DNA of 64,000 nucleotides from Elusimicrobia bacterium RIFOXYA2_FULL_47_53 (GCA_001800315.1 MGVE01000017.1:4942-68941), one strand, 5' to 3'. Positions 21,248-47,658 are shown, counted from the stretch's first letter. The notes: generated by a model from the letters alone, not told the origin. Numbers and translations: made by a program.

Positions 21248-21297
21248 TGTAGTGTTCCTCCTTTTTTGATTTTTTGCAGTTACAAGGTGCGCTCAAA

Positions 21298-21774
21298 TCA
21301 AAAAAGGAGAGGGTTGTCGCCCCTGGGGAGCGATGGAGTGGATAGCCTGACAGTTTGTGCGCGGAAAAAGACAGATGCGAATAGGGGGAATAATACCAGA
21401 AACGCAAGGTTTGGTTTGTAGTGGAGCGCTGAATCAAATATCGCCAAAAGCTTTGAAAGCGGGAGGATGGTAATCCTTGTTACGGCGACTGAAATATTGT
21501 TAGGTGTGGCGGCCCTGGAAAAAGCATCGTCATCCGGGAGAGGCGCTGAATTGTTATTCTCGGTATTTTCAATAGGTTTTATGTTTGCCGGAGGCAGTAT
21601 TTTTTCAATTACAAGCATGCTGATTTCCATTACAGGCACCCATACGAAAGAATACACAAGAATAGGTTGCTTGGCGAGAGCCTCAATAAGAGCATTCCGG
21701 CTTAAGCGGGGATAGACCGCTTGAGCGAGAATTATAGGAATTATTAAGAGGATGATTTTGTTGATTTTATTCAT
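21298..21774 (-). CDS. Small secreted or membrane hypothetical protein (158 aa)
   Basis: Signal-like N-terminus 'INKIILLIIPIILAQAVYP' and a second hydrophobic segment. It lies between two secreted-protein genes on the same strand. Confidence 0.5.
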   Translation of the reverse strand: MNKINKIILLIIPIILAQAVYPRLSRNALIEALAKQPILVYSFVWVPVMEISMLVIEKILPPANIKPIENTENNNSAPLPDDDAFSRAATPNNISVAVTRITILPLSKLLAIFDSALHYKPNLAFLVLFPLFASVFFRAQTVRLSTPSLPRGDNPLLF

Positions 21775-21896
21775 ATTGTTATCCCTTAACTATCTCTATT
21801 GTTATACATTATAAATGTAAAATGCAAATAAATCAAGTGTGAAATATTTGTGAAATATTAATATAGGATATGTTCAACACTGCCAAGACACCAATA

Positions 21897-24716: not shown

Positions 24717-24908
24717 GGTTATTTTTGCCTCGCTTATGTTTTTCACATCATTATTATAGTGTATTAGTATGAAAAAAACATCAAATATTTGAAAATTTTT
24801 TGTGAAATGTCATTAGTCAGCGGCAAGGGGGCAATGCTTTTCCGTTTGAAATAGAATATCGAAACGAATGCCTTTAACTTACATCTTACCCCTTATCACT
24901 TACCGCTG

Positions 24909-27669: not shown

Positions 27670-27849
27670 TGTGTTTAGCACATTTATGATTGCTCAGGCA
27701 GATAATACCTTAACCGTTGTTCACTGAATTCTCTTCTGTGCCGCTTTCCTGTTTATTTCATAATAATTTCACAAAATTTTTTAAGCTTTTGCGCATTGTT
27801 CTGGTAATACTCCCACAGGACAGGTCTGTAAACTAAGGCGGTGTTCTGT

Positions 27850-28209
27850 ATGGGAACAATTCTCATTATTGAAGACGAGTTGCCGATAGCGAATCTTTTG
27901 AAAATACGCTTTGAGGCCGAGGGTTTTAAGGCTCAAATAGCCCTTTCCGCGGCAGAGTGCCTGAAAAAGATAATGACTGCTATACCGGACGCTATTACGC
28001 TGGATATCACGCTTCCGGATTGCCGAGGGTTTGGCCTGCTTCAGGTACTCAAGTGTAACCCGAAGACTGCCAAGGTTCCGATTATCGTGATTTCTTCAAG
28101 CGATGAGGCGGAATCTGCCGCTGAGATCGGAGCGGTAAGTGTAATATCAAAACCCATTGATTTTAAAAGGCTTTTGGAGGTTTTAAAAAAGGTGTGTGGC
28201 AGTAAGTAG
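27850..28209 (+). CDS. Stand-alone response-regulator receiver domain (CheY-like)
   Basis: 'ILIIEDE', the phospho-acceptor context 'ITLDITLPD', 'PIIVISS' and 'ISKP'. No output domain and no kinase in the window. Confidence 0.85.
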   Translation: MGTILIIEDELPIANLLKIRFEAEGFKAQIALSAAECLKKIMTAIPDAITLDITLPDCRGFGLLQVLKCNPKTAKVPIIVISSSDEAESAAEIGAVSVISKPIDFKRLLEVLKKVCGSK

Positions 28210-28504: not shown

Positions 28505-28593
28505 TCGTTTTAATGTTTCACAAAGATTTTACATGTATTGCGCAAGTATTTTTATATATAAATACACAATTATATAGCATTCAGAGAAAAGTG

Positions 28594-28621
28594 TTGCATT
28601 TACGCGATAATTAGCTATAAT
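28594..28621 (+). promoter_or_regulatory. Sigma70-type promoter of the small TM gene / giant ORF 1 unit
   Basis: TTGCAT at 28594-28599, a 16-nt spacer, then TATAAT at 28616-28621. The -10 region and leader ('ctataattgta.cgg...cggatttga...tgttgaa') are homologous to 47044-47100. Confidence 0.6.
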
Positions 28622-28672
28622 TGTATCGGATTTGATGTTGACAATTTGTTGAAGTTGTAACGGGTGAACATT

Positions 28673-29227
28673 ATGGGAAAAAGTGCAGCAATCATCCTGC
28701 TTTTTTCTATGCTGGCGAACACACTGTCGCCGCGCAGTTTTCTTTTTGACGAAAACAGCGGCCTTGTCGCCGGAGCCTTAGGCGCGCAGACTATGGTCGT
28801 CAGCGTTCTTCGCTTCCCTTTTCATCCCATGAAGGCTGTAAAGGAACTCTACGATAAAAAAACCCCTCTTCCCTTTTCTCCGTCTAAAAACAGCGGCAAA
28901 CAGGGCCGCAGGACGGCCGGGGAATTTGAATATACGGTTTCGCTTGATAACCTGAAAGACAACAGGTTTGACAACACCTTCATTCTTGTAAATACTTTGG
29001 TTTCCTGCTCGCGTTCGCTTACTTTAACCGTCGGTAATATTAAGAATAATTCTCCCGGCGGGAATACTTTCGCGGCACTTTTGATATTCCTGATGTTGTT
29101 TGCTCTGCGCCCGAGAAGCTCAATAAACAGCGACAATATATTTCCGATAAAATATACAACTCTTAATCTCCGCCTCTTAACTGACGGCGGGGATTTTTTT
29201 ACTTACGGTACAGGGGAGATTTTATGA
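28673..29227 (+). CDS. Small membrane protein, paralog A (precedes giant ORF 1)
   Basis: ORF 28664..29227. ATG 28673 was chosen because 'MGKSAAIILLFSMLANTLSPR' aligns residue for residue with 'MKKALVLIILAAMVANFLVPR' of 47105. It has a second shared hydrophobic block, 'LLIFLMLFALRPRS'. Its stop overlaps the giant ORF start (ATGA). Confidence 0.6.
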   Translation: MGKSAAIILLFSMLANTLSPRSFLFDENSGLVAGALGAQTMVVSVLRFPFHPMKAVKELYDKKTPLPFSPSKNSGKQGRRTAGEFEYTVSLDNLKDNRFDNTFILVNTLVSCSRSLTLTVGNIKNNSPGGNTFAALLIFLMLFALRPRSSINSDNIFPIKYTTLNLRLLTDGGDFFTYGTGEIL

Positions 29228-32200
29228 AAACAACTAACTTTTCGTCGGAGAGCCTTCTGCGAATGCCGCTTGGCATTCTGTGGAAAATGCTTTTTTCGTG
29301 GATAAGAAAAAACGCGAAAAAAATTACCGCGGTAAATGTAATTATGGTTTTTTTGTCGTTTGAAATGATGTGGGTCAGCGGCTACGCGAGCACCATTAAG
29401 GAAATTCAGGACAAAAAAGTCTCCGAGCAGGCATTGGGCCGATGGGATAAGAAAGTTGAATTTAACGGTAAGTCAATTACTTACGCGCCAAACGGCGCGG
29501 CCAAGTCCGTAAAAGATAATAAGACGGGAATGACAGAGGATTTCATGGAAACTGACGGCAAGGTTTCCGTGATAATTAGCGATGCTCAGGGCAATGTATT
29601 ATCTCAGAAAGAAATGTCTAAACAGGATTTTGTTAATTATTTTAAGGCGCTGACATCGGGCGATTCTTCCAAACCCGATAAAGACGCCTCAAATGTTCAG
29701 TATGGAAAAGTTAAGGTAGAAGATAAATCAGCAAAGAAGTCCGATGGCCAGTATAATCTGGACAGCGGCGTTAAACAGGCGGGAACCGCGAAATCAAATG
29801 TCGGCGGGCAGGTGGATCTGGCGGCGCTTGCCGCTCAGTCGTGGCAGAAGGAATATTCCGCGGCCAGCCTTTCCGGGAAAAAACAGATGGTGGAACAGGT
29901 TGGTATAACCGAGGCGGAAGCTCAGAATTTCTCTCGTGAGACCGCCAAAAAAGTTCAGGCTCACCTCGGTTTTACCGATAAGAAACAGGATGAAAGCGGC
30001 ATAACGATAAAAGGCCTCGCTGATGTGCCCGAACAGATAGGCAGGTATGTAAATAAGGCGCTCGCGGGCATGGTTAATGTCGTAAAGAGCCTCGTTAAAG
30101 GAAAAGAGGGAAAAGAAGTTGAAGTCAGTATCGCGGATATCCAGGGCGCAGCGGAGAAATACGGCATCCGCCTTAAGAGTTCCAGAGGGACGGTCACTGA
30201 CCTGAAAGGTGTTGTCGCGGACGGGCCGGCGATAGCTCATTTGAACACCGGCGGCAAGACGGGAACTTTCGTTGTTGTTAAAAGCATTGACGATGACAAC
30301 GCTGCGATAATAAATTCGGATGGCAGTGAGTCAACCATTTCGGTTCAAGATTTTGAGGCCTCCTGGTCAGGGAAAATGATGTCGCAGAAATCTGACGGTC
30401 CGGAACTGGTAATAAGCGAGAAAAAAGAAACAAAAGGCAGGTTCTATAGTGAATTTTTCAGTTCAATAGGCAAGGTTTTCGGCGGCAGATCTGGTGATTT
30501 GAAAAACGCTGTCCGCGGTTCTCCTTCCGACACAGAGCCCGTGGTAGCTGGCGCTGTCGGCGGACAGATTTCAGAGGGAACGAAAACTGGACAGGTGTCG
30601 GATCTGAAAGGCAAACCAGGACAAGTCCAATCCTCAGCAAACGACCAGAGTGTAGTAGGTCAGACCATCAGTCAGATTGAAAAATTTCTCAACGATTTTG
30701 TTAATGCCAGCCCTGCCGAAAAAGCCAAAATGGCTGCCTCTCTTGGAGTTCCTGTCAGCCAGCTTGCCAATATAACCGCGGAAACTGCCTCAAAAATAAT
30801 TGATTATCTTAAATCTCAGGGTGAGGGTATACTCAACTGCGCTGTGCAGTCGCTGTTCAATCTCTTTGATTCTTCCGGGAAAAGCTACAGCAAGAGCGAT
30901 GTGGCCGCAAAAGCGATTCTCGTTGATATTATAACAGGAAATGTTACAAAACAGGCGGAGCAGGGCGGTCCGTTGCGCCTGAGTATGAATGCCATACAGA
31001 AGACGGCCGGAGCGTACGGCGTTGACATGACCGGCTACAGTACGGATATGGCAGGACTCAAAGACGCGGTTGCCAATGGCCGCGGAGCGGTTGCATACAT
31101 CAATACCCCCGATGGACAGGGCCATTTCGTTGTTGTCACAGGCGCGAAAGACGGGATGATCACCTACACCGATGCTGACGGCAAGAGCTACACGGTCAGC
31201 GAGTCGGATTTTCAGTCAAAGTGGTCCGGCCAGGTGCTTTCCCAGGAAAAGGTAAAGAGCCCGAATGCCGTAGAGCTTGGGTTCTCGGCGCTGAAACAAA
31301 CTATGGGCGCTTCTATGCCTCCATCAAATACTTATCCCACAGGCGCAGGCGAGTCAACTCCGGATCCCGATGCCTCAGCCTCGGCCCCGGCTCCTGACGA
31401 GGAATCTGGTGATAGTGACAGAGGTGATGGAAGGTCGGGGATTTATGGATTTGGTGGCGACGATGATTCCGCCGCAAGAGCTGCTGAGGAAGCCAGGAAG
31501 GCAGCTGAAGATGCGAGAAAGGCCGCTGAGGAAGCTCAACGGAAGGCCGAGGAGGCCCGTAAAAAGGCTGAAGAAGCGCGCAAAGCAGCTGTTGATAGAG
31601 AAGAGCAGAAAGCGCTTGATAAGGCTGCCGATGAAGCGGAAAGGGCCGCCAAAGAAGCAATTAGAAAAGCAGATGAGCTGGCTAAGATTGCTGATAAAAC
31701 AAAAACATCCGCTGAAAGAAAATCTGTTGAGTCTGTTGCGAATTCGCAGCCGTCCGTCGGTGCCGATTCTCAGGATACGGCTGATGTCTCAGTAACAGGT
31801 AAGATGGTAAGAAGCGCTGAAAATGCCGCGGTTGCTCCCCAGCAGGCTCGCGGGACAATGTCGGACATAATTAAAAAATCATTCGGTTTAAGCGGTACTG
31901 AGGATAAGGGCGAGTCAAATGCGCGTTCAAATATTACCGGTGAGACTGCAGATACGGCTTCCGGACTTCAGGATATAGCTAATCTAAGAACTTCCGTGGG
32001 GGCTGTGCCGTCTGACGAAGTGCCGTCTGCGGCATCTAGAGTAGTTGGTCCCAGATCAATAGGAACAGAATCCTCGGATCAGGAGGAAACAGTTGATTCA
32101 GGGCGCAGCGCCATACAGGAAGGTTTGAGGAATGTTTTTGGGGATATTCCCGCACCTGTTGAAAGCGCGGTTTCCGCTTTAGAGGGAACTTTTAATGTTA

Positions 32201-35200
32201 GAAGCATTTTGGGTAGTTATCGTAAAGATGTCTCCGGAGATGAAAGCGATTCAAGCGGAAGTTCTTCGCAGTATGACTCGGTGTCAGGAAAAACCGCCAT
32301 TCAGACAGCAGGATTAGGTAATTCCGGTTCCTCTCCCGTTGGTAGACAAGTTAGGAGCGAAGCTTCTGCCGGATTGTCGGAATCGGAATATGATAGTGGA
32401 TATAGCGGCAGAAGAGTTCTTTCAAGGACGGATGAGTCAGATATGTCCTACGGCCGCCGGATAGTTGACAGTTCCAGCGGCGATGAATCCTTTACTATGG
32501 CTATGGCCGGTTTTGGCGCCAAAAGATTTGGCGCTCAGGATGAATTATCCGAAGAGGATCAGGCTCTTGCTGAAGAGTCTGAAAAAATGGTTGACGATAT
32601 TGAAACCAAACTGAAAAACTATCAGAAAGCAAGCGCTAAGGAAAAAGCAAAGATAGCCGAAGAGCTGGGTGTAAAGCCTGAAGATCTGATGAATTTGACG
32701 GATCTGGAGATAAAAAGAATTGTTCATAATCTCAGGTCTATGGGCGGCGATCTGGCGAGAAATTATCAAAAAGCTAAGGATGAAAATACTTCCGGAAGTT
32801 TTTCGCTTGATGCTTTGCAAAACAGGGGATTTGATACTTCTCGTACAACGGCTGAAAAAACCAATGATTTATTCAAAGATATTATAACCGGCAAGGGTGT
32901 CAGGAACTCTTCGGAAAACAAAGATGGTCAAAATGAACCGCAATTTGATGAGTTTGGCGGCGCTTCTTATCAGTCTGCGGGCATGCGCGGGCAGAGTGAC
33001 GGCTACAACAAAAGTGTTTATGGTAGCGGGACCACTCTTCAGGAGTTGGGTGCCCGCGGCGCGAGTGCGCTGAATGATTTATTCCACCAGGGTTATAGTC
33101 TTTTTGAGGCCGCCGGGATGCTTGCCCAGGCAAAAGAGTTTTCTAAACTGCCTCAGGAAGTGCAGGACCAGTATAATCAGGCAGCTGATAAGATGACCGA
33201 TGAAATTGAAGAATGGTTATACGATTTTGAATCTGCCGATGCTGCCGGTAAAGAGAAAATGGCCAAAAAATTCGGCCTTACGGTTGACGAGGTAAAAAAC
33301 CTTACAGCTGATGGAATAGATCAGTTTGTTGGAATGCTCAGGATGCAGCGCGGCATGGCGCTGGCATTTAGTCCGGGCCTGAATAAACTATTTTCAGCTT
33401 TGCAGGGAAACGGCAAGAAATTTGACATGGCAAAGGTCGCCGGAGAGGCATTTTTGACCAATTTCCTTGTCGGCGGTTCGCGGGCATCAATTAAGAATGA
33501 GTCAAACGATGTGACAGGTGAAAATTATTCTACGAGAATTCCGCCCAGCCTCACCCTTGACCTGTACAGCGTGCGCAAAGTAGCAGCAAAATATGGCGTT
33601 GAAATGGGTATGGCATACAGGACCGATCTGCAGGGGCTTAAAGACGCCCTGGCCAACGGAACGGAGGTGGAAGTATACTGGTCACAGTATGGAAATAATA
33701 ACCTTGTCAAACTAATAGCGATAGATGGCGGACAGGTAGCTTTCATGACTGAGAGCGGCCAGGTTATGAATATTCCGGAAAAAGACTTCATATATAACTG
33801 GAAAGACGGCCTGGTTTTTACAAATGAGGAAATAACCAGAGGAGTAGCTGTCAGTGAAACTGAACTGAAGGGCCTTGGAATAAATAACTTTTCAGGAATC
33901 AAAAAAGAAAAAAGCAAAAAGGGTTTCCTTGGCGCAATAATAGGAGTTGTGGCCATTGTGGCCATGGTAGTAATATCCATATATTGCCCTCCTGCTGGTG
34001 CCGCTATAGGTACAGCTGCGGCCGGTGCGGGTACCGGTACGGCAGCTGCCGTAGGAACAACTGCTGCAATTGGAACATCATTGACTGCGACAGGTGTGGG
34101 TATGATGTCAGCCGGCGCGGCCATGATAGGTACGGGTATAGGAGCAACGATTGCAGGAGTAGGTATGGTTGCTGCCGGTGCTGTTGTTGCCGCAGCTGGT
34201 GCCATTGCCACAGCTGCTGCAGCGATAGGTGCGGCATTTTCCGCTGCTGGAGCTGCTGTCAGTAGCGCCATGGGACTTACTGGCGTCGCAGGTTCATTTG
34301 TTTCTGGATTTGTCTCAGGCGCTCTCTCGTCAATGGCCATGAGTATGGGTACTCAGCTGATAATGACCGGCTCAATAGATTTCGGCCAGGTTTTAAAATC
34401 AGGGCTAACTGGCGGTTTGACGGCAGGCATAATGCAGGGAATAAATGCAGGATTTGATGTGGCCATGGGCAACCCAATAGGATCAGCTGGTGGTGGCCTT
34501 TCAGGATTTGTAGAGAATTCGTTGGGTTTTGGAAGTTCTGCCGGCGGTTTTGCAAGTAATTTGATGCAGGGCGCAATAAGCGCGACGGTGGATTATGGTA
34601 TAAATGGTGGAAATTTTGTTGATAAACTTTCAAATCTAGGAATGAGTATCGGTAGCGGATTATTGGGTTTTGCTTCGGAAACATTAGGACTGGGTAAGGT
34701 ATTTAATAATATTGGGGCGTTGGCAGGTGAAATAGTTTCCAATGCGGTTAAAGGAGCTGTAGGAGCGTTGGTAGATTATGCCATAAACGGCGGCAATCTT
34801 GCTGAAAGCCTTACCAGGTCAATTGTCGGGTCAGCAATGAATGGCTTGGTTGGAGTAAATGGCTTAGGGCTTACTGGACAGCCCGCAAGCTCATTTATGG
34901 GAGATTTCTTTGGTACTGCTATCGTGAACTTTGTCACTGATACCGTTACAGCTTTGGTAAGCGGGAATGAATACGATTTTATGGACACTCTAACAAATAG
35001 CTTGTTGTCCGGATTTACAACAGCTACGACCAATTATGTGCTGGAGAAGCTATTTACTGAGAACGAAATTAAATTTGCGGATAAATATGGCTTTATTAAT
35101 GACCCCACGAGAACAGCTGACTACGCATCTGTATCGTTTGTTATGTCAGCTTTATCAAGTTTGACGGGTATAGCGGTAAAAAGCGCTCTCGGAATAAAAA

Positions 35201-41200: not shown

Positions 41201-44200
41201 GTGAAGGGAATTATGCTCTTAAAGGTGAAATAGTAGCCAATCGCGGCGCTAATGTTAAAGTTGATATCAAGGATTATGGTTCGGTCACGCTTGAAACTGC
41301 GAGCGAACAGGCAAAGTTTGAAGTCACTTACGATGTTGGAACTAATATGTCCAGAGTAACCCTCAAAGAGGGCGGAAAATTAAGTATTAATGAGAATACG
41401 GGTTCAATGAAACTTCTGGTTAAAGAAAACGCAGGTTCAGCTGAGGGCACGAAAGTAATTGAGGTTGTTTCAGGGGAAGTTGAGGTTCGTGGCGGGAAGC
41501 TTATTCTTGACCTTGCAAATGTTAAATATGAGGTTACTGACAAAAATGGAGATGTTAAAGAAGAGAGCGGCATGATTCTTAATCTGGAGCTGGCAAGCCG
41601 TGGTGAAAGCGGTGATTTCAAATTCAATTCTGATATTTCCTTTGATATTGTCCGTGCTGGTAATGATGCCGGTAAGTTTATCGGAGATGCTAAGGAAAAG
41701 ATTGGCTCGGTTATATCTAAAATGAGTGAGGGGGACACAGCATTTTCTTACAAAGAATTGCTTAGTAGTGCTTTTAATCTTTCTGCCGGCAACAAAAAAA
41801 TAGTTATTGATTTTATTAAAGAAAACTTTAAGGCGAAAACAAAAGATGGTCAGAAAGAAGGGCAAGAGATGGGAACGGAACAAGCCGAACATTATTATAA
41901 TCGGGCTATGGATGCGTATAAGAAGGATGTTTTAAAAGCAAATCGTTTCGTTGATGAAGCGATTGGTAAAAATGAAGTCTCAGGTGAAAGTAAAGTCGTT
42001 TTGGAGAAGAACTCAAAAGCAGATAAGGATGGTTTTAAAGGGGCAGTTAACAGATATACAGGCCAAGTTATTGAAACCCTTAGAAAAAATGGTGTTGATT
42101 TGGATAAGACAACAAAAGATCTCGTGCGCGAGTATGTGTCTGGTAGGCTGTCTGAATTAATTAATGAACGCATTAAGAACCTTTCTGGTAAACACGGAGA
42201 CAATATCTTGGCTGCCGCCAAAGAGTTGGGAGATTTGATGGGTGTTGATACAAATCACATGCAAGGGATTATTAATGGTAAAATGGTTGGCGATGCTGTT
42301 ATAAAGGTGCTTAATGCGTTGTCTCGTGATGGTATTGATCTTCGTCCCGGCCAGTGGGACACATTGCGCTGGGCTATCGAGCTGACCGTAGGGAAAACTG
42401 ACAGGGTGCTTCTAAATAACCCTACTGCGGCCGGAAAAACTCTGAGCGGACATATCATTGCGCTATTCAGGGGCTCTTTAGGTTTGAAAACAGATATTTT
42501 CGCGCCCAATACTGCCCTTGCCAAGCAGGCTATGGAAGGCAAGGTGAATGGAAAAGCTTATGAAACTTTACACGGATTTAAAAAACCGGTAATGTTTGAC
42601 GATATTGTGCGGCAATATACTGATCCTAACAACAAACTTTCAGCGGCAGAAGTTATTAAAATTCTTGAAACAGCTGATACTTTGATATACACTCAGAATT
42701 CATTTTTCCTTATGCAGAATGCAAGAACCAATGGGGACAAGGCTTTAATGAAGGCGCTTGAGACAAGAATGCGCGACACTATGCTTGTGCTTGATGAAGC
42801 CCATCTCTATATGAAAAATGTTATGGACCTCATAATAGCGGGTGATCCTATCCCGCTTGACGCGTTGGAAAGACAGCACTTTGAAATGGTGTTTGACAAA
42901 TTGCAGCAAGCCGGGCTTGTTGATAAGGACGGGCATGTTGAACAAAAAGTTGTTAGGGATATGGTTGAGGACGGCGGGGCTCATGTTGCTTTTAAAAAGA
43001 CGGCTGAGGAAAAGCTTCTGAAAACTTTCAGTAAAAATGAGCTTGGTACTGCGGAAAGTATTCTTTCCGGTATGCTTGGGGTTGTTAAAGGGCAGATACA
43101 TGTTGACATAAATGGAGTCAAGCCTATAAGCGGTTCTACCGGACAGATAGAATATTCAAGGCAGTTCCAGGATATGAGTTTTATTCTTGGAGCGGGCAAA
43201 CAGGGTAATCTTGGAAAGCATAATAAAGAAGCCTTGTATGCTGCCGCAACCAGGTCGCGCACTGTTTCAAGTGAGGGGCTTGTTACAATATTCGGCCGTT
43301 TTGGCAAGGTCCTCGCGATGACAGGCACGCCGCCCGATCGCGCGGTTGCTAAACTTTGGGGCTTTGGAGAAGCGAAATCTATTGGTTTTGCCGGTGGTGT
43401 TGACATTAACTATGTGAATGTCAGCGGAGAGAGCATCCCTGCTATGGTGAAATTTATTGTAGACAGATATATAGCAAATGATAAAATTCAATACATTATA
43501 CAGCATGAGCAGGTTGATAAGGTTATGGATGCTCTAAAGAATTATATCGGTGAAATAAAAGACCCTGCCATGCGGCAAAAACTTTTAGATAATCTTGTAA
43601 GAGTTGGGGAAGACAGGATAAGCCCTCTTGCATCCGGCGGGTATATTGGGAAAATAGTTGCCGCCAACAAAATCGCCGGACTCGGCGTTGACTATAAAAT
43701 TGATCTTGTTTTTGCCACCGACGCGAGATATTCGGAAGCCATTGTAAGGCAAGCCAAGGGAAGGCCGAGCAGGAGCGGTGAATATGGCGAATTTCATGTT
43801 TTCGGTGAAAGAGAATGGATTGACAAGAGATATAGTGAACTTTATGAACTTAAGTGGCGGAGCACTACAAATGAAATCCTGGAAGGACTTGGTGAAGTGG
43901 AAAGATTTGAAAAACAAAAAGCAGAGCTTTCAGGCAAAAAGGATTCTGCCGATAGAACAGCCGCCGAAGCCGAAATTAATGAAAAGCTTTATATTGAGAA
44001 GCTTCAGTTTATTCAGAAATATATGGATGCAAAAGACGAGGCTGATGTGTGTGTGCAGACCGTTTCTCAGGCACTAAGGGATTATGTTATTGAAAGAATC
44101 AGCGTGTCAGAGGCTGATAGAGCCCTGTTTATGAAGGAATTTCATAAGAATGAGGGCATTGAAAAAGGCAAAGCCTCAAAACAATTTAATAAAGGCAGCT

Positions 44201-46872
44201 TTGACGGCGAAATGCAGTTGAGAAACACCTTAGAGGTTACGGTGGCTTCGCTTAAGGCGGTCGTTAAAGACAAGGCGATCCTTGCAGAGCTTAATTCACT
44301 TAAGCTTAAACCCGGCGAAGGCAAAACCGGTGTTGAGTCTTTGACGGAGGCATTGAAGGGAACTGAAAATGTAATGCAGAGGATAGTTGACGCCGGCTAT
44401 TCCAACGCAAAAGACCTGGTTCCTGTTGAGATACTTTTTGGCGCTCCTGTTGTATCCCAGCAGTTTGTTGATTCTCGCGCGGCTAAATCGCAGAAAATCA
44501 ACGAAGTCACAGGTCCGGCGGAAAGGTACCTGTCGGACATTAAGGAAAACAATGATAAATATACCTATTCGCGGTATGTTGAGGAGAACGGCAATCTTAC
44601 CGTTGCCGGACAGATGTTGGTTTACCTTGTAAATTCTGCCGGCAGTTTATACAGCGCCATGGTGAGCGATGATGTTTCTGCCGCCAGACCGATTGATTTA
44701 ATCCTCAAAACAATGGAAGGTATAATGAATTCCAACGACTGGGAGCAGGAGTTGCTCTCAACGGTCATGGATGAGGCAAAGAAGAATTCCCAGAGTTTCG
44801 CGCAGGCCAACTCCGGAACAGCGGCAGATGTCAAGCTCACTCCGTTATATGACGACTTTAGACAGCTTAAGGAGGGCGGAGACAATATTCGCAATCTTTC
44901 TAAGCCTGGGGTTTCCGGTCTGAAATCTTTGGCATTAAATTATTACGCAAGATTAATGCCAATGCGTCAATCTAAAAACGCCATAAACTCAATCTATCGG
45001 CGTGTTGTGGGCGATCCGACTATAGCTCCTGAGGAGAAAGCCGCGCTTATAGACGCTTTATGGACAGTTGCTTCTTCAAATCCAGCGATGGCGGGAAAAG
45101 TTAAAGGCACAGGTGCTTATAGGGCTTCTATAATGACTGCCGATCAAGCCAATGCTCTGAAGAATTTGATCGCATTCCCTAACTCAGGATTTATTTGGAA
45201 AAATGTCATTATAAATGATGTAGTAAAATCAATACAAAGTGGAAATATTGCCAATCTAATACTCAGCCTGAGTCCAGGCGATAGTGTTCTTCCGCTTGTC
45301 GCTAAGGCTATTCAGGAAATCCCGGGGAACAGGGTGCTTACTATGGCTCAGGCAAATGCGCTTGCGACTGATATTGCCGGCAAGGCGAACATGCAGGGTA
45401 ATGTGCAAGATATTCTTGAAAAGGTACTGTTTGCTGGCGGGTTGGCCTATTCTGAAAACTTCAAGATTGATATTGAAAATGTTATTAATAGATTTGCCGA
45501 GGTTAAAAATTTAATTCAGGACACGGACTTTACCGACCGCATTACTATTGATCAGCTTGTTGCCAAAGATTTCGATGCCAAGAACTCATATAAGCAATAT
45601 CTTGCATCGGTTAGATCGAGCGCATTGGCAAGATCGGTCTCTAGGGCTGATATATTCGAGGGAGTAGTAGATTCATATTTGAGCAATTCTGCGGATAATC
45701 TGAAGGATTATTCAGCTGCGGATGACTATGTTATGTCTAAACGTGCGGCAAGCGGCCTGCAGACAGTCGATGGTATTGTCGCTTCGGTTTCCGATGAGGC
45801 AAGCGCAATAAAAGCTGCAGATATATTCCGTCGCAATATTGACTTCCTAGTTGATGACAGCCTTTTAAAAAGTATACATATGGCCGGTATGTTTATTAAG
45901 ATAGAAAAATCCATGGCAGACGCAGTAAAAGTTAATAATAGTGCACGTGTTCAGGCACTGGATGTTTTAAAGGGTGAGGTGTTAAAGTTTGTAACGGACA
46001 TGGAAGTTACAAAAATGGCTGAGCTTGAAGCAATAGGTTTTGAGTCTATAGTCTCGCTCGGGGCCGGTAAAGCTATAGAAGGCGCTGCGAATGCAATGGG
46101 TGTAAACACAAGGGGTTATATTGCTCCAGATATAATTGAGACGCTTTTGCCGAGCGTATATTCAATAACCGTTTACAATGCAAATACTGAAGACGCTATG
46201 TTCGCTTCTATTTTGCGCAATTATAGAAGCGGCCAAGAGCTTATTGTTAACGGTCTTGGTATGAAAGCTGATGAGGCTCTTACGGTCGCAGCGATTGAGG
46301 GTGCTTTCCTCGATAAATGTACAAAAATAATGGCCAGATTCAATAATGCTGATATCACTCTTGAAGAGGCGCTTCTTGAGATAGAAACTGTAAAGAAGAT
46401 CAAGTTTATTCTCTCGGTTGAGAACGGTGTTTCGAAATACAACGAGGTTAGAAGTGAATTGGTGGGCAAATTTGGGGACGAGCTGTCTGATATCGATCTC
46501 AAGAGTCTGCGGAAAATTGAAGCATATGCCAGCTTGACCAAGGAAGTAAGGGGGATCGAAGCTGTCCAGAAAGACATCGCAACACTGGAGTTTGTCGGCA
46601 GGCTAAGGGCTGAATCGCAGAAGAAGATGGTGTCCGATATTAAGGCCGGGACAGTCAATCCTTGGATGGTTTCAATCAGGACGATTAAGGGACTTGGCGA
46701 AACAATATCGGGATTTGTAGAGGGAGTCACGGGTTTTGCTCAGGGAAATAAGAAAGGTCCAGATGAACTGCTAAAAGATGCTTTGAGGAAATATGAGGGA
46801 TTTGACGAGGAAAATCTCAAAGTCAAGAGGATTGATGTGCAAAAATCTATGAAGATTAAATTAGCGGCGTAA
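29224..46872 (+). CDS. Giant mosaic membrane protein 1 (5,882 aa)
   Basis: Single uninterrupted frame in the ORF track. GGGGAG RBS 5 nt before the ATG. All other-frame ORFs across these 17.6 kb are short. Sub-domains are listed separately. Confidence 0.9.
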   Translation: MKTTNFSSESLLRMPLGILWKMLFSWIRKNAKKITAVNVIMVFLSFEMMWVSGYASTIKEIQDKKVSEQALGRWDKKVEFNGKSITYAPNGAAKSVKDNKTGMTEDFMETDGKVSVIISDAQGNVLSQKEMSKQDFVNYFKALTSGDSSKPDKDASNVQYGKVKVEDKSAKKSDGQYNLDSGVKQAGTAKSNVGGQVDLAALAAQSWQKEYSAASLSGKKQMVEQVGITEAEAQNFSRETAKKVQAHLGFTDKKQDESGITIKGLADVPEQIGRYVNKALAGMVNVVKSLVKGKEGKEVEVSIADIQGAAEKYGIRLKSSRGTVTDLKGVVADGPAIAHLNTGGKTGTFVVVKSIDDDNAAIINSDGSESTISVQDFEASWSGKMMSQKSDGPELVISEKKETKGRFYSEFFSSIGKVFGGRSGDLKNAVRGSPSDTEPVVAGAVGGQISEGTKTGQVSDLKGKPGQVQSSANDQSVVGQTISQIEKFLNDFVNASPAEKAKMAASLGVPVSQLANITAETASKIIDYLKSQGEGILNCAVQSLFNLFDSSGKSYSKSDVAAKAILVDIITGNVTKQAEQGGPLRLSMNAIQKTAGAYGVDMTGYSTDMAGLKDAVANGRGAVAYINTPDGQGHFVVVTGAKDGMITYTDADGKSYTVSESDFQSKWSGQVLSQEKVKSPNAVELGFSALKQTMGASMPPSNTYPTGAGESTPDPDASASAPAPDEESGDSDRGDGRSGIYGFGGDDDSAARAAEEARKAAEDARKAAEEAQRKAEEARKKAEEARKAAVDREEQKALDKAADEAERAAKEAIRKADELAKIADKTKTSAERKSVESVANSQPSVGADSQDTADVSVTGKMVRSAENAAVAPQQARGTMSDIIKKSFGLSGTEDKGESNARSNITGETADTASGLQDIANLRTSVGAVPSDEVPSAASRVVGPRSIGTESSDQEETVDSGRSAIQEGLRNVFGDIPAPVESAVSALEGTFNVRSILGSYRKDVSGDESDSSGSSSQYDSVSGKTAIQTAGLGNSGSSPVGRQVRSEASAGLSESEYDSGYSGRRVLSRTDESDMSYGRRIVDSSSGDESFTMAMAGFGAKRFGAQDELSEEDQALAEESEKMVDDIETKLKNYQKASAKEKAKIAEELGVKPEDLMNLTDLEIKRIVHNLRSMGGDLARNYQKAKDENTSGSFSLDALQNRGFDTSRTTAEKTNDLFKDIITGKGVRNSSENKDGQNEPQFDEFGGASYQSAGMRGQSDGYNKSVYGSGTTLQELGARGASALNDLFHQGYSLFEAAGMLAQAKEFSKLPQEVQDQYNQAADKMTDEIEEWLYDFESADAAGKEKMAKKFGLTVDEVKNLTADGIDQFVGMLRMQRGMALAFSPGLNKLFSALQGNGKKFDMAKVAGEAFLTNFLVGGSRASIKNESNDVTGENYSTRIPPSLTLDLYSVRKVAAKYGVEMGMAYRTDLQGLKDALANGTEVEVYWSQYGNNNLVKLIAIDGGQVAFMTESGQVMNIPEKDFIYNWKDGLVFTNEEITRGVAVSETELKGLGINNFSGIKKEKSKKGFLGAIIGVVAIVAMVVISIYCPPAGAAIGTAAAGAGTGTAAAVGTTAAIGTSLTATGVGMMSAGAAMIGTGIGATIAGVGMVAAGAVVAAAGAIATAAAAIGAAFSAAGAAVSSAMGLTGVAGSFVSGFVSGALSSMAMSMGTQLIMTGSIDFGQVLKSGLTGGLTAGIMQGINAGFDVAMGNPIGSAGGGLSGFVENSLGFGSSAGGFASNLMQGAISATVDYGINGGNFVDKLSNLGMSIGSGLLGFASETLGLGKVFNNIGALAGEIVSNAVKGAVGALVDYAINGGNLAESLTRSIVGSAMNGLVGVNGLGLTGQPASSFMGDFFGTAIVNFVTDTVTALVSGNEYDFMDTLTNSLLSGFTTATTNYVLEKLFTENEIKFADKYGFINDPTRTADYASVSFVMSALSSLTGIAVKSALGIKIQDGAINSAIAAAFESAFKPYLIGMYNRGEAAVLSAQARANGWGDKDSGFYMAPQDDIELLRDIDGNINIINGTARYGYEDGVHYNVSYKEGNYSEIRVNDKEKGIVNELAVTGPQNGLAQGILGIDPQGIIKGKMVFGQIYYWNGGTGVGRLSDSSLFKDGKYSYTLGDGRLGVDITQEQGKYVLNFSVDNAAVDMYGSSIAGTVFTSDNKKEVYVLDKNGELVDVKAGGVTKMSVGDVTVEFGFDDRGYFKGDIVSKTTFTNIDGVTNTYTLDRALMQKGKTTIYSAKGEDGKSYLLEFNADFELVIKDVLKVNQSSAKNGVKDVIEVDKNTGEITDSYQMLLKQQDMSEATKAMFGNKSELRITSSLMKNFDETAESSKFAFVKGADGKEYVVGLDDENNIKDILTGEVANKNGDCLITYSSDENGVLESTKTRLMNSDTLNLEDNERDALFGDKDLIDVTTQKTGSGKDLKMYGEIKDKEGNVIYVLDFGSDYVVDGLLRNNTTLNNGIQKINYTFDSSGKVNKSETWTVAGSDYDADQLKFTENADGRSVVQARDKDGKIKAIDYVDYKDGEYLDGGAIDKDDEFVQYRGENGTALYASWDGKSELLSSFGDGRKTAELVIGGKTLKVEITKDGKGLRLTDGPAKIGLPGGKDLVIDEVIKLDTERGDLTCTGKLNVGAGESAEFDKEHVFAEKNSQGGDPGPDKSKTKANTEVGLQIDKDGKVTITGEKGESSLDVSFSFEAALGGTDSIERNMRLEGFAKGTQINFRSDYSASVSGTGYNSLLVTAGSSIVIQREGGIMQNLDGLAKGSYIVKGVNADGAKVTHEERAASSVGQIKSIDTIQKGSQTTTVETKIGSVENGKVTDYTYTYNGVASSEDAQLDGDRGTLIVFEDMGGVILGRDANGITTLSGIVMSGTLKSGVVDGRDYAYSFNISGHKGDYRLDTQLFVGGVPYNPVDLISRQGNVSRSLYFGGKEGKYSALAIDFKDGDIVGIHGVQLTGNNQEVELGNGKSAIFFRNADEVLTYQGSYDTGRISEKNGDIYVSDSILKSFGVNNSMNIKGDLIFRNNGTMSSEYKELYKGKELVGNLENKGNGLYAVIPPNGSDKIDPIAVKAKDGKGGWTDADFEISSLQFSNDGTTTAMGRLLLDSGESVGGAKLSETLGGEGGSAPENKLGKPDYFLTIDGDTITNTGANEVGFSVSVSMDQLANGQITEMTVTGFDTSTQVTVLKAQLNYSRPLGNGLTATGTVTIQNKIFSISRPGGLMANWDTMENVQGKNGAAFEAVSIIDSKGNIVKDEKGNLAQGVRVFGDKGKVEQSGIANIQLQGSWIDTSTAEFATRTVYQDFGAGVVDVLAGSVKVLFEDSTESGWNKIFSGVAQMYGGGLGVISDIYATASNLVKLIPASTRVEAEEYLMNNSILAQGAVSLYNASSELVQSVLGYVTDSGVDKNKAIDNIKNNPIIIGFENAMSGLASFANKTYDFLVAVGSVTTGLIIKAVTWIPNAIMGIKAGDYSDDFAIKNNSWTKFGDEMEAWGLSTLTGKQYASGKDLTYSDAFIVGAKIGATLAVGTKLLTAAKSIFGVSFKSIVTDAVNAGVITTAANMGTNVVLGKPITAENITSSFLSGVLMGGGLSLGLRGIGAALGTSSFIANRVAGGKLFGQIATFEKTYLAGMDWLGMSAINGTIRVVNAVDAWAATVAKGVMTAASSGTAMITYGGVWNFAKVAPIFGVVETVGGLTWDMVVKGKDVNESIESRGGIYAMATRIVTQPFEFAKMALWLQPMMGVAQATDKVVKALLGEGRFGQTMRVLSGEHSASNLIRSGKVLFDYSGKINVEALIARNLERQAAKHGLAAQFDSAIFISGTLSASASIGTLIGSTVFGKDNSAINPLTGMTEAQEWGQSFAFWSLLFLPRSTVTGVKLSKALGVENANKLLSGSAAGDVKIKDILTGDIPAFGEMPVAKAREYIANEFLGKRFEVGSIDFENSKIAIKEIGEGNYALKGEIVANRGANVKVDIKDYGSVTLETASEQAKFEVTYDVGTNMSRVTLKEGGKLSINENTGSMKLLVKENAGSAEGTKVIEVVSGEVEVRGGKLILDLANVKYEVTDKNGDVKEESGMILNLELASRGESGDFKFNSDISFDIVRAGNDAGKFIGDAKEKIGSVISKMSEGDTAFSYKELLSSAFNLSAGNKKIVIDFIKENFKAKTKDGQKEGQEMGTEQAEHYYNRAMDAYKKDVLKANRFVDEAIGKNEVSGESKVVLEKNSKADKDGFKGAVNRYTGQVIETLRKNGVDLDKTTKDLVREYVSGRLSELINERIKNLSGKHGDNILAAAKELGDLMGVDTNHMQGIINGKMVGDAVIKVLNALSRDGIDLRPGQWDTLRWAIELTVGKTDRVLLNNPTAAGKTLSGHIIALFRGSLGLKTDIFAPNTALAKQAMEGKVNGKAYETLHGFKKPVMFDDIVRQYTDPNNKLSAAEVIKILETADTLIYTQNSFFLMQNARTNGDKALMKALETRMRDTMLVLDEAHLYMKNVMDLIIAGDPIPLDALERQHFEMVFDKLQQAGLVDKDGHVEQKVVRDMVEDGGAHVAFKKTAEEKLLKTFSKNELGTAESILSGMLGVVKGQIHVDINGVKPISGSTGQIEYSRQFQDMSFILGAGKQGNLGKHNKEALYAAATRSRTVSSEGLVTIFGRFGKVLAMTGTPPDRAVAKLWGFGEAKSIGFAGGVDINYVNVSGESIPAMVKFIVDRYIANDKIQYIIQHEQVDKVMDALKNYIGEIKDPAMRQKLLDNLVRVGEDRISPLASGGYIGKIVAANKIAGLGVDYKIDLVFATDARYSEAIVRQAKGRPSRSGEYGEFHVFGEREWIDKRYSELYELKWRSTTNEILEGLGEVERFEKQKAELSGKKDSADRTAAEAEINEKLYIEKLQFIQKYMDAKDEADVCVQTVSQALRDYVIERISVSEADRALFMKEFHKNEGIEKGKASKQFNKGSFDGEMQLRNTLEVTVASLKAVVKDKAILAELNSLKLKPGEGKTGVESLTEALKGTENVMQRIVDAGYSNAKDLVPVEILFGAPVVSQQFVDSRAAKSQKINEVTGPAERYLSDIKENNDKYTYSRYVEENGNLTVAGQMLVYLVNSAGSLYSAMVSDDVSAARPIDLILKTMEGIMNSNDWEQELLSTVMDEAKKNSQSFAQANSGTAADVKLTPLYDDFRQLKEGGDNIRNLSKPGVSGLKSLALNYYARLMPMRQSKNAINSIYRRVVGDPTIAPEEKAALIDALWTVASSNPAMAGKVKGTGAYRASIMTADQANALKNLIAFPNSGFIWKNVIINDVVKSIQSGNIANLILSLSPGDSVLPLVAKAIQEIPGNRVLTMAQANALATDIAGKANMQGNVQDILEKVLFAGGLAYSENFKIDIENVINRFAEVKNLIQDTDFTDRITIDQLVAKDFDAKNSYKQYLASVRSSALARSVSRADIFEGVVDSYLSNSADNLKDYSAADDYVMSKRAASGLQTVDGIVASVSDEASAIKAADIFRRNIDFLVDDSLLKSIHMAGMFIKIEKSMADAVKVNNSARVQALDVLKGEVLKFVTDMEVTKMAELEAIGFESIVSLGAGKAIEGAANAMGVNTRGYIAPDIIETLLPSVYSITVYNANTEDAMFASILRNYRSGQELIVNGLGMKADEALTVAAIEGAFLDKCTKIMARFNNADITLEEALLEIETVKKIKFILSVENGVSKYNEVRSELVGKFGDELSDIDLKSLRKIEAYASLTKEVRGIEAVQKDIATLEFVGRLRAESQKKMVSDIKAGTVNPWMVSIRTIKGLGETISGFVEGVTGFAQGNKKGPDELLKDALRKYEGFDEENLKVKRIDVQKSMKIKLAA
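29323..29391 (+). other. N-terminal TM / signal-anchor of giant protein 1
   Basis: 'ITAVNVIMVFLSFEMMWVSGYAS' preceded by the basic 'RKNAKK'. Confidence 0.6.
29990..30387 (+). other. C39-like module A, degenerate (no Cys or His at the aligned positions)
   Basis: 'IAHLNTGGKTGTFVVVKSIDDDNAAIINSDGSESTISVQDFEASWSGKMM' aligns with the C-terminal half of module B. Confidence 0.45.
30820..31250 (+). other. C39-like papain-fold cysteine peptidase module B (Cys and His present)
   Basis: 'GILNCAVQSLFNL' (Cys codon 30838-30840) ... 'GQGHFVVVTGAKDGMITYTDADG...FQSKWSGQVL' (His codon 31123-31125). This pattern is typical of the peptidase C39 / C39-like families. Confidence 0.6.
31471..31698 (+). repeat. 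Charged Ala/Glu/Lys/Arg coiled-coil-like low-complexity repeat
   Basis: 'AARAAEEARKAAEDARKAAEEAQRKAEEARKKAEEARKAAVDREEQKALDKAADEAERAAKEAIRKADELAKIADK'. Confidence 0.8.
33355..33825 (+). other. C39-like module C, degenerate
   Basis: 'SPGLNKLFSAL' replaces 'NCAVQSLFNL', and 'NNNLVKLIAIDGGQVAFMTESGQVMNIPEKDFIYNWKDGLVF' replaces 'GHFVVV...WSGQVL'. Confidence 0.45.
33921..35060 (+). other. Gly/Ala/Ser/Thr-rich hydrophobic region (multi-helix membrane block 1 of giant protein 1)
   Basis: 'GAIIGVVAIVAMVVISIY...AAGAGTGTAAAVGTTAAIG...GMVAAGAVVAAAGAIATAAAAIGAAF...'. Small-xxx-small patterns run for about 380 aa. At DNA level, GCWG-rich low complexity gives spurious ORFs in several frames. Confidence 0.6.
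39240..40980 (+). other. Second hydrophobic region of giant protein 1
   Basis: Many 18-25 residue apolar segments, such as 'FLVAVGSVTTGLIIKAVTWIP', 'AFIVGAKIGATLAVGTKLLTA', 'FLSGVLMGGGLSLGLRGIGAAL' and 'AFWSLLFLPRS'. Confidence 0.5.
42343..43815 (+). other. SecA-like DEAD-motor ATPase domain inside giant protein 1
   Basis: Walker A 'NNPTAAGKTL' (42427-42441 = AAGKT). 'LVLDEAHLYMKNVMDLIIAG' (DEAH 42793-42804). About 176 aa to 'VLAMTGTPP' (43318-43329). Then 'AANKIAGLGVDYK' and 'QAKGRPSRSGEYGEFHVF' (43750-43773). Confidence 0.6.
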
Positions 46873-47022
46873 ACTATCGGCCTGTGGCTGAAAAGCTAAG
46901 AGCTGGCCGGTGTGGTGAATTGAGATGGGGGCTAAGTTTTACATCAAATTCACAAAAGTTTTTAATCTATTTTTCATCTAAAACGGAGTATTTGAACGAG
47001 GTGTATAGTATCAAAAAAAGCA

Positions 47023-47051
47023 TTGACAACAGCGGTAAACTCGCCTATAAT
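47023..47051 (+). promoter_or_regulatory. Perfect-consensus sigma70-type promoter of the small TM gene / giant ORF 2 unit
   Basis: TTGACA at 47023-47028, a 17-nt spacer, then TATAAT at 47046-47051. Confidence 0.7.
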
Positions 47052-47104
47052 TGTACCGGGTACGGATTTGAGAATTGTTTGAAACTCTTGTTCAATTTTA
47101 TTCT

Positions 47105-47614
47105 ATGAAAAAAGCGCTTGTGCTTATCATTTTAGCGGCGATGGTCGCCAACTTCCTGGTTCCGAGGTTTTCTCTGAGCCGGCAGGATAGCTTTACGCTC
47201 ACGCAGATAATTAAAACGCAGTCCACTCTGCTTTACTTCTTTTCTCTGACGACGCTCCCGATGAAAATGGTAAACGACCTGTTTCACCGCTCGCAGAGCG
47301 CCCCTCTTACTTCTCAGGATAAACAGGATGGCAAGCCGCATAATGCTTCGGATACTTCGGCGGATTTCACCATTCTCTCCGCGAATAAAACAGTGGCTTC
47401 CGAGAGAAATGATCTCGGGAGCGCCTGGGTTCCGTTTGCTCTTGCTGAGGGGATAGAGCTTGTCGCCGGCAGGTTGTATAAACTATTTGGTACGGCTCAG
47501 GGGTCCGGTGTCCCTCTGATATGCATGCTTATGTTTTTTTTCCTTCGTCCAAGAAGCGCGATTGACGACATAATTTTTTCCTATACAAATAATAAAACCC
47601 AGCTTATAAACTAA
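47105..47614 (+). CDS. Small membrane protein, paralog B (precedes giant ORF 2)
   Basis: ORF 47075..47614. ATG 47105 gives an N-terminus collinear with paralog A. Shared 'PMK.V..L' and 'LMFFFLRPRS' blocks. Confidence 0.6.
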   Translation: MKKALVLIILAAMVANFLVPRFSLSRQDSFTLTQIIKTQSTLLYFFSLTTLPMKMVNDLFHRSQSAPLTSQDKQDGKPHNASDTSADFTILSANKTVASERNDLGSAWVPFALAEGIELVAGRLYKLFGTAQGSGVPLICMLMFFFLRPRSAIDDIIFSYTNNKTQLIN

Positions 47615-47628
47615 GCTGGGTTTTTTCT
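47595..47628 (+). terminator. Rho-independent terminator / possible attenuator between small gene B and giant ORF 2
   Basis: 'AAACCCAGCTTataaactAAGCTGGGTTTtttc': 11-bp perfect stem plus a T run. The loop/stem contains the TAA stop of 47105..47614, and the hairpin ends 31 nt before ATG 47659. Confidence 0.75.
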
Positions 47629-47658
47629 TTGCTTAATTCTTACTTTTGAGAGGGTAAA

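Follow-up and report, generated by a model that had tools for sequence, protein, structure and literature searches.

A clear association between small membrane-protein genes and giant genes was found in a 64,000-nucleotide stretch of DNA (the window) from Elusimicrobia bacterium RIFOXYA2_FULL_47_53 (GCA_001800315.1 MGVE01000017.1:4942-68941), in which two small genes, S1 and S2, each directly precede a giant gene, G1 and G2, respectively. S1 and S2 are paralogs that separated long ago, and they belong to a family of inner-membrane proteins of ~170-200 aa that had not been described before. The S/giant observation is real and extends well beyond the window, and a conserved intrinsic terminator at the junction of the two genes adds a specific, testable model for the gating of giant-gene expression.

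The four genes of the region lie on the same strand in the order S1, G1, S2, G2 (positions are counted from the first letter of the window; L and P numbers denote loci and homologous proteins, respectively):

28673..29227, plus strand: S1, 184 aa, two transmembrane (TM) segments, a fast-evolving member of the S family
29224..46872, plus strand: G1, 5,882 aa, with the same 5,882 aa in the gene tables of the parent contigs
47105..47614, plus strand: S2, 169 aa, two TM segments, of the mainstream S-family type
47659..64000, plus strand: G2, truncated where the window ends, with more than 5,447 aa inside it

On the parent contigs, which stem from Rifle groundwater metagenomes and reach up to 390 kb, the full G2 counts 8,798 aa. 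The gene of G1 spans 17.6 kb and that of G2 26.4 kb.

The small proteins form a large family

The coordinates and open reading frames (ORFs) of S1 and S2 given in the initial annotation, a first reading of the sequence, are correct, and so is the paralogy that it proposed. BLASTP aligns the two proteins with 26% identity over 159 aa (E=3e-10), and their Smith-Waterman score of 114 compares to 31±5 for shuffled controls (z≈16), with none of 2,000 shuffles equalling it; 2,000 block-preserving shuffles likewise gave 31±5 and none came up to 114. The two blocks singled out at the time, 'PMK.V..L' and 'LRPRS', are the most conserved columns of the family, in which P52 and R150 are invariant among 43 sequences. 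The public gene calls start S2 at a TTG codon located 10 codons further 5' (P0002, 179 aa; window 47075-47104). We favour the ATG at 47105, considering where the promoter is located and how the orthologs align.

An exhaustive profile search of 1.84 billion cluster representatives recovered 184 family clusters (defined at 50% identity) at E<=1e-3 and 93 at E<=1e-10, and nearly all members measure 150-260 aa. The exhaustive search was needed to appreciate the real size of the family: word-indexed protein searches returned just 6-7 members, and pattern-based locus scans of GTDB genomes and metagenomes 0, 1 and 1 loci. The closest relative of S1 is P0048 (E=2e-16). S is a real coding gene, as close orthologs differ mostly at third codon positions; for instance, P0005 and P0006 show 35, 25 and 57 differences at the first, second and third position, respectively, and 35 synonymous codon changes.

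The family signature starts with a hydrophobic helix that is followed by N-G-F-V-P-R-F and QSxLLxFFSxSxxPxKIVNxLF, after which a basic and polar linker leads to NTSxDYSL, a variable stretch, a Pro/Gly motif and a second hydrophobic helix that ends in FFFL[LR]PRS. In the family-averaged hydropathy two TM segments stand out clearly, which correspond to residues ~4-20 and ~134-148 of S2. Basic residues are found at the N-terminus and after the second TM segment (TM2), which suggests that both termini are cytoplasmic and that a loop of ~115 aa lies outside. The AlphaFold2 (AF2) model of S2 is all-helical, with helices at 2-18, 26-64, 108-127 and 135-147. It has a moderate mean pLDDT (predicted local distance difference test) of 66. 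The extracytoplasmic loop is thus predicted to hold a long conserved helix, and TM2 to end in the invariant L-[LR]-P-R-S.

Searches for a known relative returned little. The DUF3112 model matches 4 of the 43 members (best E=2.4e-5), with S2 of the window below its curated cut-off, and an Rfam scan of the S1 region gave chance-level matches only. Two candidate assignments were rejected. A lipoprotein was discarded because neither S1 nor S2 has the Cys seen in the hydrophobic N-terminus of other members, and this Cys has no lipobox context. A GlyGly-CTERM or sortase-type signal was discarded because the Gly motif varies and the basic cluster is followed by another 20-40 residues.

Adjacency to giant genes

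We have read the genomic context of 15 S junctions out of the ~184 clusters. In all of the nine related loci that have downstream sequence, which represent at least six distinct lineages and are all of the S2/G2 type except L019, S is located directly 5' of a long ORF. In the window, too, each small gene immediately precedes its giant gene, as had been proposed: the TGA of S1 and the ATG of G1 overlap as ATGA, and S2 ends at 47614, shortly before G2 starts at 47659. Across the loci the junction consists of either a 4-bp overlap or a gap of up to 166 nt. At the level of genomic linkage, the earlier suggestion of a dedicated neighbour of giant genes therefore stands, since all nine readable homolog loci precede a long ORF of the G1 or G2 type.

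The nature of the downstream genes could be established in most cases. More specifically, in L001-L003, L013 and L015-L017 the first ~550 aa of the downstream ORF are 37-53% identical to G2 residues ~38-553. In L014 the downstream open frame begins within the 3' end of S; compared by eye, it has an N-terminus like the anchor of the G2 type. In L019, P0048 overlaps an ORF that has a G1-type anchor at its N-terminus (RKNAIKIIAVQTLIAFLSFEL versus RKNAKKITAVNVIMVFLSFEM), as judged from 43 aa. The reverse comparison, made for one G2-type gene on a 37-kb Endomicrobia contig (L023), revealed a divergent S homolog 45 nt upstream. P0136, a protein of 424 aa encoded on an NCBI contig of 738 kb, combines an S-like domain with a G2-type N-terminus (IINIQDLHCNGEVQRNI...) in one reading frame. 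This protein is either a natural S-giant fusion or the product of a lost stop codon or frameshift; a fusion would be compatible with a cytoplasmic C-terminus of S and a cytoplasmic N-terminus of the giant protein.

Taking the window together with the homologs in other genomes, every partner was giant or cut by a contig end. The sizes found were 5,882 aa, 8,798 aa, at least 3,278 aa (L001) and at least ~3,300 aa, the remainder reaching contig ends, and there was no complete partner of ordinary size among the readable contexts. A 908-aa partner in L013 was considered as a counter-example and rejected, as a 100-N scaffold gap (L013:13149-13248) splits the giant gene; the open frame continues for at least 2,485 codons past the gap (contig CAZNYG010000010, GTDB representative 'uncultured Elusimicrobiales').

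The association is retained down to 22-30% identity between the S proteins. The genes on the other side of S differ between loci and include those for a radical SAM protein, LysE, GH77 and 5-enolpyruvylshikimate-3-phosphate (EPSP) synthase. Thus, it is the pair of S and giant gene that forms the conserved unit. Upstream of S in L001 there is an ORF similar to the C-terminus of G1 (E=5e-8), and the tandem order G1-S2-G2 is therefore conserved as well. Moreover, the type of S tracks the N-terminal domain of its giant neighbour: S1 and P0048 accompany the Peptidase_C39 (C39) type and S2-like proteins the G2 type. The relatives of the G2 N-terminus are named as proteins of metagenome-assembled genomes (MAGs) of Endomicrobiales, Endomicrobiaceae or Endomicrobia. 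Overall, this suggests that the S family is dedicated to giant membrane-anchored proteins in the Elusimicrobiota (Endomicrobia-like lineages).

A conserved terminator at the junction

The most informative feature found, which the initial annotation had missed, is the terminator between S and the giant gene. We scanned for perfect stems of at least 7 bp that contain four or more G-C pairs, enclose a loop of 3-15 nt and are followed by five or more T residues in the next 8 nt. Such a hairpin with its run of T residues (T-run) is present in 14 of 14 loci within 125 nt around the S stop codon, whereas the background amounts to 61 matches in 251 kb, or 0.03 per 125 nt. The stems are 9-15 bp long and free of mismatches across the 14 loci. 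Their sequences diverge between lineages by compensatory changes, for example CCCAGCTTA/TAAGCTGGG, CCCGGTG/TACCGGG, CCCGGCCTGATC/GATCAGGCCGGG, CCCAGTTTGGA/TCCAAATTGGG and CTCCGCC/GGCGGGG. Within the window the two elements are:

29165..29202, plus strand: terminator-like hairpin of S1, 10-bp stem, 11-nt loop and T-run, inside the last 20 codons of S1
47594..47633, plus strand: intrinsic terminator of S2, 13-bp stem, 5-nt loop and T-run

The geometry of the junction is well conserved. The S1 hairpin ends ~25 nt before the ATG of G1, and the ATG of G2 is found ~25 nt past the T-run of the S2 terminator; in 9 of 10 loci the distance from the end of the hairpin to the giant ATG is 19-40 nt. In the window the space between the T-run and either giant ATG is too short for a promoter, and a polymerase that transcribes G1 or G2 must therefore have passed the terminator. 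The stop codon of S2 (47612-47614) coincides with the junction of the loop and the 3' arm. Considering 15 junctions (including L014 and L023), the S stop is located downstream of the hairpin in nine, six of these with an ATGA overlap, in the loop in five and 1 nt before the stem in one. The invariant PR[SG] codons are constantly found 45-56 nt before the 5' arm. The ribosome-binding sites of the giant genes lie outside the hairpin (GAGAGGG before 47659 for G2 and GGGGAG before 29224 for G1).

The location of the terminator within the coding region has a practical consequence. The C-terminal peptides KTQLxxxSWVFYL and KNPIWxxxxLGFSF are translated terminator arms plus T-run (e.g. 47594-47633 and L017:2681-2724). 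Part of the conservation of the S C-terminus thus reflects a translated RNA hairpin, which calls for caution in the building of protein families.

Promoters and upstream boxes

Promoter-like sites and tandem boxes of the following kind precede the small genes and two of the neighbouring transcription units:

47023..47051, plus strand: S2 promoter TTGACA-17-TATAAT, perfect, one of two such in the window
28594..28621, plus strand: S1 promoter-like site TTGCAT-16-TATAAT, score 9/12, read from the sequence
28515..28535, plus strand: tandem box TTTCACA-N4-TTTTACA, ~60 nt upstream of the S1 -35 element
46936..46962, plus strand: tandem box TTTTACA-N4-ATTCACA, ~60 nt upstream of the S2 -35 element
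27768-27781, plus strand: TTTCAYA-type box, before the response-regulator gene
24793-24806, minus strand: TTTCACA tandem box, before the divergent minus-strand operon of unknown function

Of the two consensus promoters claimed earlier, the one at 47023 is indeed perfect. The site at 28594 combines a perfect -10 hexamer with a weak -35 element (TTGCAT, 3/6 matches) and is absent from the list of the consensus scan. Near-consensus promoters occur at the equivalent place in L001, L010, L011, L012, L013 and L017.

The similarity of the two upstream regions is more limited than proposed. CTATAATTGTAYCGG occurs exactly twice in the window, at the upstream sites of S1 and S2 (0.08 expected), and the alignment of the 90 nt upstream of both genes has a z of 7.2. 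Nevertheless, of the strings said to be shared by the leaders only the 15-nt block at the -10 is clearly common: without the -10 hexamer the remaining similarity is borderline, as 48 of 2,000 shuffles reach it (~p=0.02), even with TGTAYCGG still included.

The claim that the duplication had included the regulatory DNA is not supported. S1 and S2 are 26% identical and their split is ancient: it predates the divergence of the sampled genomes, because the orthologs of S2 have G2-type partners and P0048 precedes a G1-type gene. The leaders of the S2 orthologs are unlike that of S2 and can not be aligned to it, except for that of the closest relative, L010. Since neutral DNA would not stay similar for so long, the 15-mer shared in the -10/+1 region is more likely a regulatory or consensus element that both genes use, or has arisen by gene conversion within the genome, than a leftover of the duplication.

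The boxes point to another common feature. The TTTCACA-N4-TTTCACA motif has four matches in the window (24793-24806 on the minus strand; 27768-27781, 28517-28530 and 46949-46962 on the plus strand), all intergenic, versus 0.69 expected, and the boxes align with boxes upstream of the S homologs in L001, L010, L011, L013 and L015. The 11-bp period of the repeat corresponds to the layout of PhoB/OmpR-type boxes. That the tandem box is common to S1, S2, the response-regulator gene, the minus-strand operon and S homologs elsewhere suggests a shared regulator or regulon.

The giant proteins

The giant genes had been described as not obviously homologous, and indeed BLASTP finds no similarity between G1 and G2 at E<1e-3. 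G1 has an N-terminal TM segment (aa ~35-55) and a Peptidase_C39 match (E=4e-21) in two parts that fall within aa ~300-680, of which the one at aa 586-676 is the best. Further downstream, at aa ~4370-4850 (~42300-43800), there are sub-threshold matches to DEAD, ResIII and Helicase_C (E=1e-4 to 0.07), and the SecA_DEAD model has no match in G1.

G2 combines an N-terminal TM anchor with a conserved domain of ~550 aa and many hydrophobic clusters. A LysM domain is found at aa 1514-1569 (E=7.5e-5) and a very weak match to an MdoH/OpgH-like glucosyltransferase at aa ~2934-3025 (~56460-56735; E=0.04). The N-terminal domain (aa 1-560; 47659-49338) is present in all G2-type partners, with invariant H109, H111 and E137 and a 'GGFHT' motif, and has no sequence match in Pfam or PDB. 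Its AF2 model (pLDDT 82.6) has the erythromycin esterase EreC as best PDB fold match (E=0.026, probability 0.51), which with template-modelling scores (TM-scores) of 0.12-0.15 is not significant; HopBA1 is found at rank 35 of the fold matches. These two fold matches are a weak hint that the domain has an EreA/ChaN/TIKI-like hydrolase core into which a large helical segment is inserted. All 11 G2-type matches are 'partial' or on short contigs, and giant genes thus appear as systematically fragmented or truncated in these assemblies.

As a separate observation, the GC skew is +0.14 to +0.27 over most of G1 and G2 (30000-64000) versus ~+0.02 to +0.09 in the upstream plus-strand genes; the coding strand of the giant genes is strongly G-over-C-rich for tens of kilobases.

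A model for gated expression and its alternatives

Considering the conserved unit and the position of the terminator, we propose that S is a two-TM accessory membrane protein that is co-expressed with the giant protein via a translation-sensitive attenuator. Going by the sequences compared here, we give this reading an even chance. Each S gene would be transcribed from a strong sigma-70-type promoter, and the transcript would either end at or pass the intrinsic terminator that is located 19-40 nt before the giant start codon. A ribosome finishing S would cover or melt the hairpin, so that RNA polymerase would proceed into the 17.6-kb or 26.4-kb gene only with a ribosome close behind. In the ATGA cases the overlap indicates that the giant gene is probably translated by coupling to S. 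Uncoupled transcripts would stop and yield an S-only mRNA, and thereby an excess of S, and the commitment to a costly gene would be gated. The S protein itself would serve as a stoichiometric membrane partner, that is, as an anchor or assembly subunit for the N-terminal TM anchor and the ectodomain of the giant protein. That transcription actually terminates at the hairpin, that the ribosome occludes it and that S and the giant protein interact physically are steps that we infer from this arrangement.

Several observations weigh against this reading. First, S has no supra-threshold match in Pfam, NCBIfam, PADLOC, PDB sequences or, using Foldseek, PDB folds. It has no homology or fold likeness to any chaperone, insertase or anchor, the roles that the initial annotation had put forward, and the pLDDT of its AF2 model is moderate. 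Second, G1 and G2 are without a clear common S-binding element: their N-terminal anchors are only weakly similar (a score of 6.9 bits for G1, which 11 of 5,000 shuffles reached), and a scan of the whole ORFs did not recover this similarity. Third, in L001 a spacer of 154 nt follows the terminator (L001:3315-3467) and holds TTGACA-17-TATTTA, as read by eye, so that this giant gene may have its own promoter. Finally, that the partner is always giant is extrapolated, as the 15 contexts read stand for ~184 clusters and most partner ORFs are truncated, and several of the loci are close relatives (L001/L012 and S2/L010). In view of the L001 spacer, the dependence on read-through may vary between lineages.

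A first alternative is that S acts mainly as a regulatory 'sensor ORF', with its protein being secondary. The progress of translation or membrane insertion would then decide whether the terminator forms, and so report the available capacity before the giant gene is entered, much as the pyrBI leader peptide or the monitoring substrates SecM, MifM and VemP do. That the S frame reaches the terminator or passes it at all 14 loci, the constant spacing of the PR[SG] codons and the lack of space for separate giant-gene promoters in the window are in line with such a role. In addition, the size and layout of S, with a hydrophobic N-terminal segment and a conserved C-proximal motif, recall the established cases of SecM and VemP. 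However, the conservation spans the whole protein (NGFVPRF, QSxLLxFFSxSxxPxKIVNxLF, NTSxDYSL and TM2) and not just a C-terminal arrest motif, and S has no arrest motif of known type. Moreover, a ribosome paused at PRS would end ~30 nt before the hairpin, so that a stall would favour termination instead of relieving it, and the hairpin leaves the ribosome-binding site of the giant gene free. We therefore regard a mainly regulatory S as unlikely.

Alternatively, S could be an abundant stand-alone membrane protein that is a substrate, inhibitor or immunity factor for the peptidase-like N-terminal ectodomain of the giant protein, the terminator making S far more abundant than its neighbour. With a perfect consensus promoter in front of S and a strong terminator behind it, an abundant monocistronic S mRNA is indeed to be expected. 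Both giants carry a TM anchor followed by a hydrolase-like domain (C39 with E=4e-21 in G1; EreC as best fold, E=0.026, in G2), the type of S follows the type of that domain (C39 versus G2), and a Gly-rich 'PGG/PGxG' motif precedes TM2. A substrate of Peptidase C39 would be expected to have an N-terminal leader of ~15-25 aa ending in GG, GA or GS, and no such double-glycine leader is found in S: the N-termini consist of MKK, a hydrophobic helix and NxFVPRF, and the sole Gly-rich motif, at aa ~130 before TM2, is not conserved as GG, notably in the S2-type members. Given also that the G2 domain can not be assigned to the EreA/ChaN-like group with significance (TM-scores 0.12-0.15) and that the ATGA overlaps suggest co-translation and roughly coupled synthesis and not independence, we consider an independent S of this kind quite unlikely.

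Finally, it is highly improbable that there is no functional coupling at all, i.e. that an ordinary end-of-gene terminator closes an unrelated S gene and that the adjacency merely reflects the shared ancestry of few genomes: although every context comes from one phylum, several loci are closely related and the giant gene of L001 may have its own promoter (by eye), the adjacency survives the divergence of S to 22-30% identity and a change of upstream neighbours, both types of giant gene have retained an S paralog of their own, at least six loci show ATGA overlaps next to the in-frame fusion in P0136, and in the window the distance from the T-run to the giant start codon is just ~25 nt at either junction.

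The accessory-protein reading can be extended. S and its embedded terminator might together form a 'commitment checkpoint', at which the polymerase enters the 17-26-kb gene only if an S-translating ribosome is coupled to it, possibly only during the membrane insertion of S, after which S would dock the nascent giant protein at the membrane. In this full form the proposal is doubtful. If true, it would represent a previously unknown, lineage-wide way to transcribe, translate and insert proteins of 5,000-9,000+ residues without premature termination. Giant bacterial genes were discovered recently, and their regulation, the avoidance of premature termination and the membrane insertion of their products are poorly understood. 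The S family of ~184 clusters provides a conserved handle on this question: it marks giant genes in the Elusimicrobiota and could do so where they are fragmented in short-read assemblies. In addition, the geometry of the terminator predicts that read-through depends on the translation of S.

Genomic surroundings

The module is preceded by tig-clpP-clpX-lon, two serine-pathway genes, an ABC (ATP-binding cassette) transporter and a TetR-OEP-AcrB efflux set. Closer to S1 follow four unannotatable minus-strand ORFs, a tetratricopeptide repeat (TPR) protein and a single-domain response regulator:

27841..28209, plus strand: response regulator, single-domain, 122 aa, Pfam Response_reg E=8e-19, upstream of S1

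The response-regulator gene is possibly part of the module. In L020 the S homolog P0011 is preceded, with an ATGA overlap, by a receiver-like C-terminus (judged by eye). The minus-strand ORFs, of 283, 610, 158 and 949 aa (18430-24746), have no match in Pfam, and their synteny is kept on all parent contigs; a TTTCACA box is located upstream of the first gene of this set.

Comparison with known systems

Very large genes in Elusimicrobiota have been mentioned in bioRxiv 10.1101/2023.11.21.568195, in which giant membrane proteins of Omnitrophota and other phyla of the PVC (Planctomycetes-Verrucomicrobia-Chlamydiae) group were described as having an N-terminal hydrophobic anchor or signal, nearby C39 domains and a divergent DEAD-type ATPase region, and as mostly unannotatable (West-Roberts et al. 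2023). A small upstream partner or a terminator is mentioned neither in that preprint (bioRxiv 10.1101/2023.11.21.568195) nor in the 2026 Omnitrophota preprint, and literature searches for an Elusimicrobia equivalent found none. G1 is like the Omnitrophota giants ('Archaeovorin'-like) in having C39 near an N-terminal anchor, a divergent DEAD-type region and otherwise mostly unannotatable sequence. In contrast, G1 and G2 belong to an Elusimicrobia bacterium and measure 5.9 and 8.8 thousand residues instead of more than 30 thousand. An Omnitrophota origin, which the giant genes had at first suggested, was rejected in view of the names of the G2-type homologs and of the ClpX of the window, which is at least 90% identical to a protein of an 'Elusimicrobia bacterium' MAG. 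The window also lacks an upstream type II/IV secretion (T2SS/T4P-like) locus and a SecA_DEAD match.

With respect to regulation, the closest parallel is formed by transcription attenuation. In the pyrBI operon of E. coli a leader ORF of 44 aa is translated through an intrinsic terminator, and a ribosome that follows closely blocks the hairpin and allows read-through. Similarly, the S ORF reaches into or through a Rho-independent terminator just before the giant gene in 14 of 14 loci. However, the S 'leader' is a conserved membrane protein of 170-200 aa and not a 44-aa peptide, and no pause element like the nucleotide-sensitive one of pyrBI was identified.

In the pairs SecM-secA, MifM-yidC2 and VemP-secDF2 the ribosome-binding site of the downstream gene is masked by a hairpin, on which the ribosome is stalled by an arrest peptide at the C-terminus; SecM and VemP are ~160-200 aa long. 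The S/giant unit shares with these systems a small ORF with an N-terminal hydrophobic segment, located before the gene of a (giant) membrane protein, and an RNA hairpin at the junction. It differs in that the hairpin is a terminator with the ribosome-binding site outside, that PRS is found 45-56 nt upstream and that there is no sequence similarity.

Partial terminators within operons are known to set subunit ratios, e.g. after the major pilin gene papA. The succession of a strong promoter, a gene for a small membrane or structural protein, a terminator and a downstream gene that needs read-through is the same in both cases, whereas S is unrelated to pilins, its stop codon lies within or past the hairpin and just one ORF, a giant one, follows downstream.

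At the protein level, some very large secreted proteins have dedicated accessory proteins, such as TpsB for TpsA, and the ABC and membrane fusion protein (MFP) components of type I secretion systems (T1SS) for RTX adhesins. The gene-for-gene pairing of S with a very large partner, and the matching of paralogs to partner types, is alike. Unlike these accessories, S is a small two-TM protein without Omp85/POTRA, ABC or MFP homology and without a recognisable catalytic or transport domain, and it has no match to TpsB, T1SS ABC/MFP, YidC or usher chaperones by sequence or fold. The S/giant unit joins an unannotated protein family to a regulatory layout that is a variant of known attenuators and operon-internal terminators.

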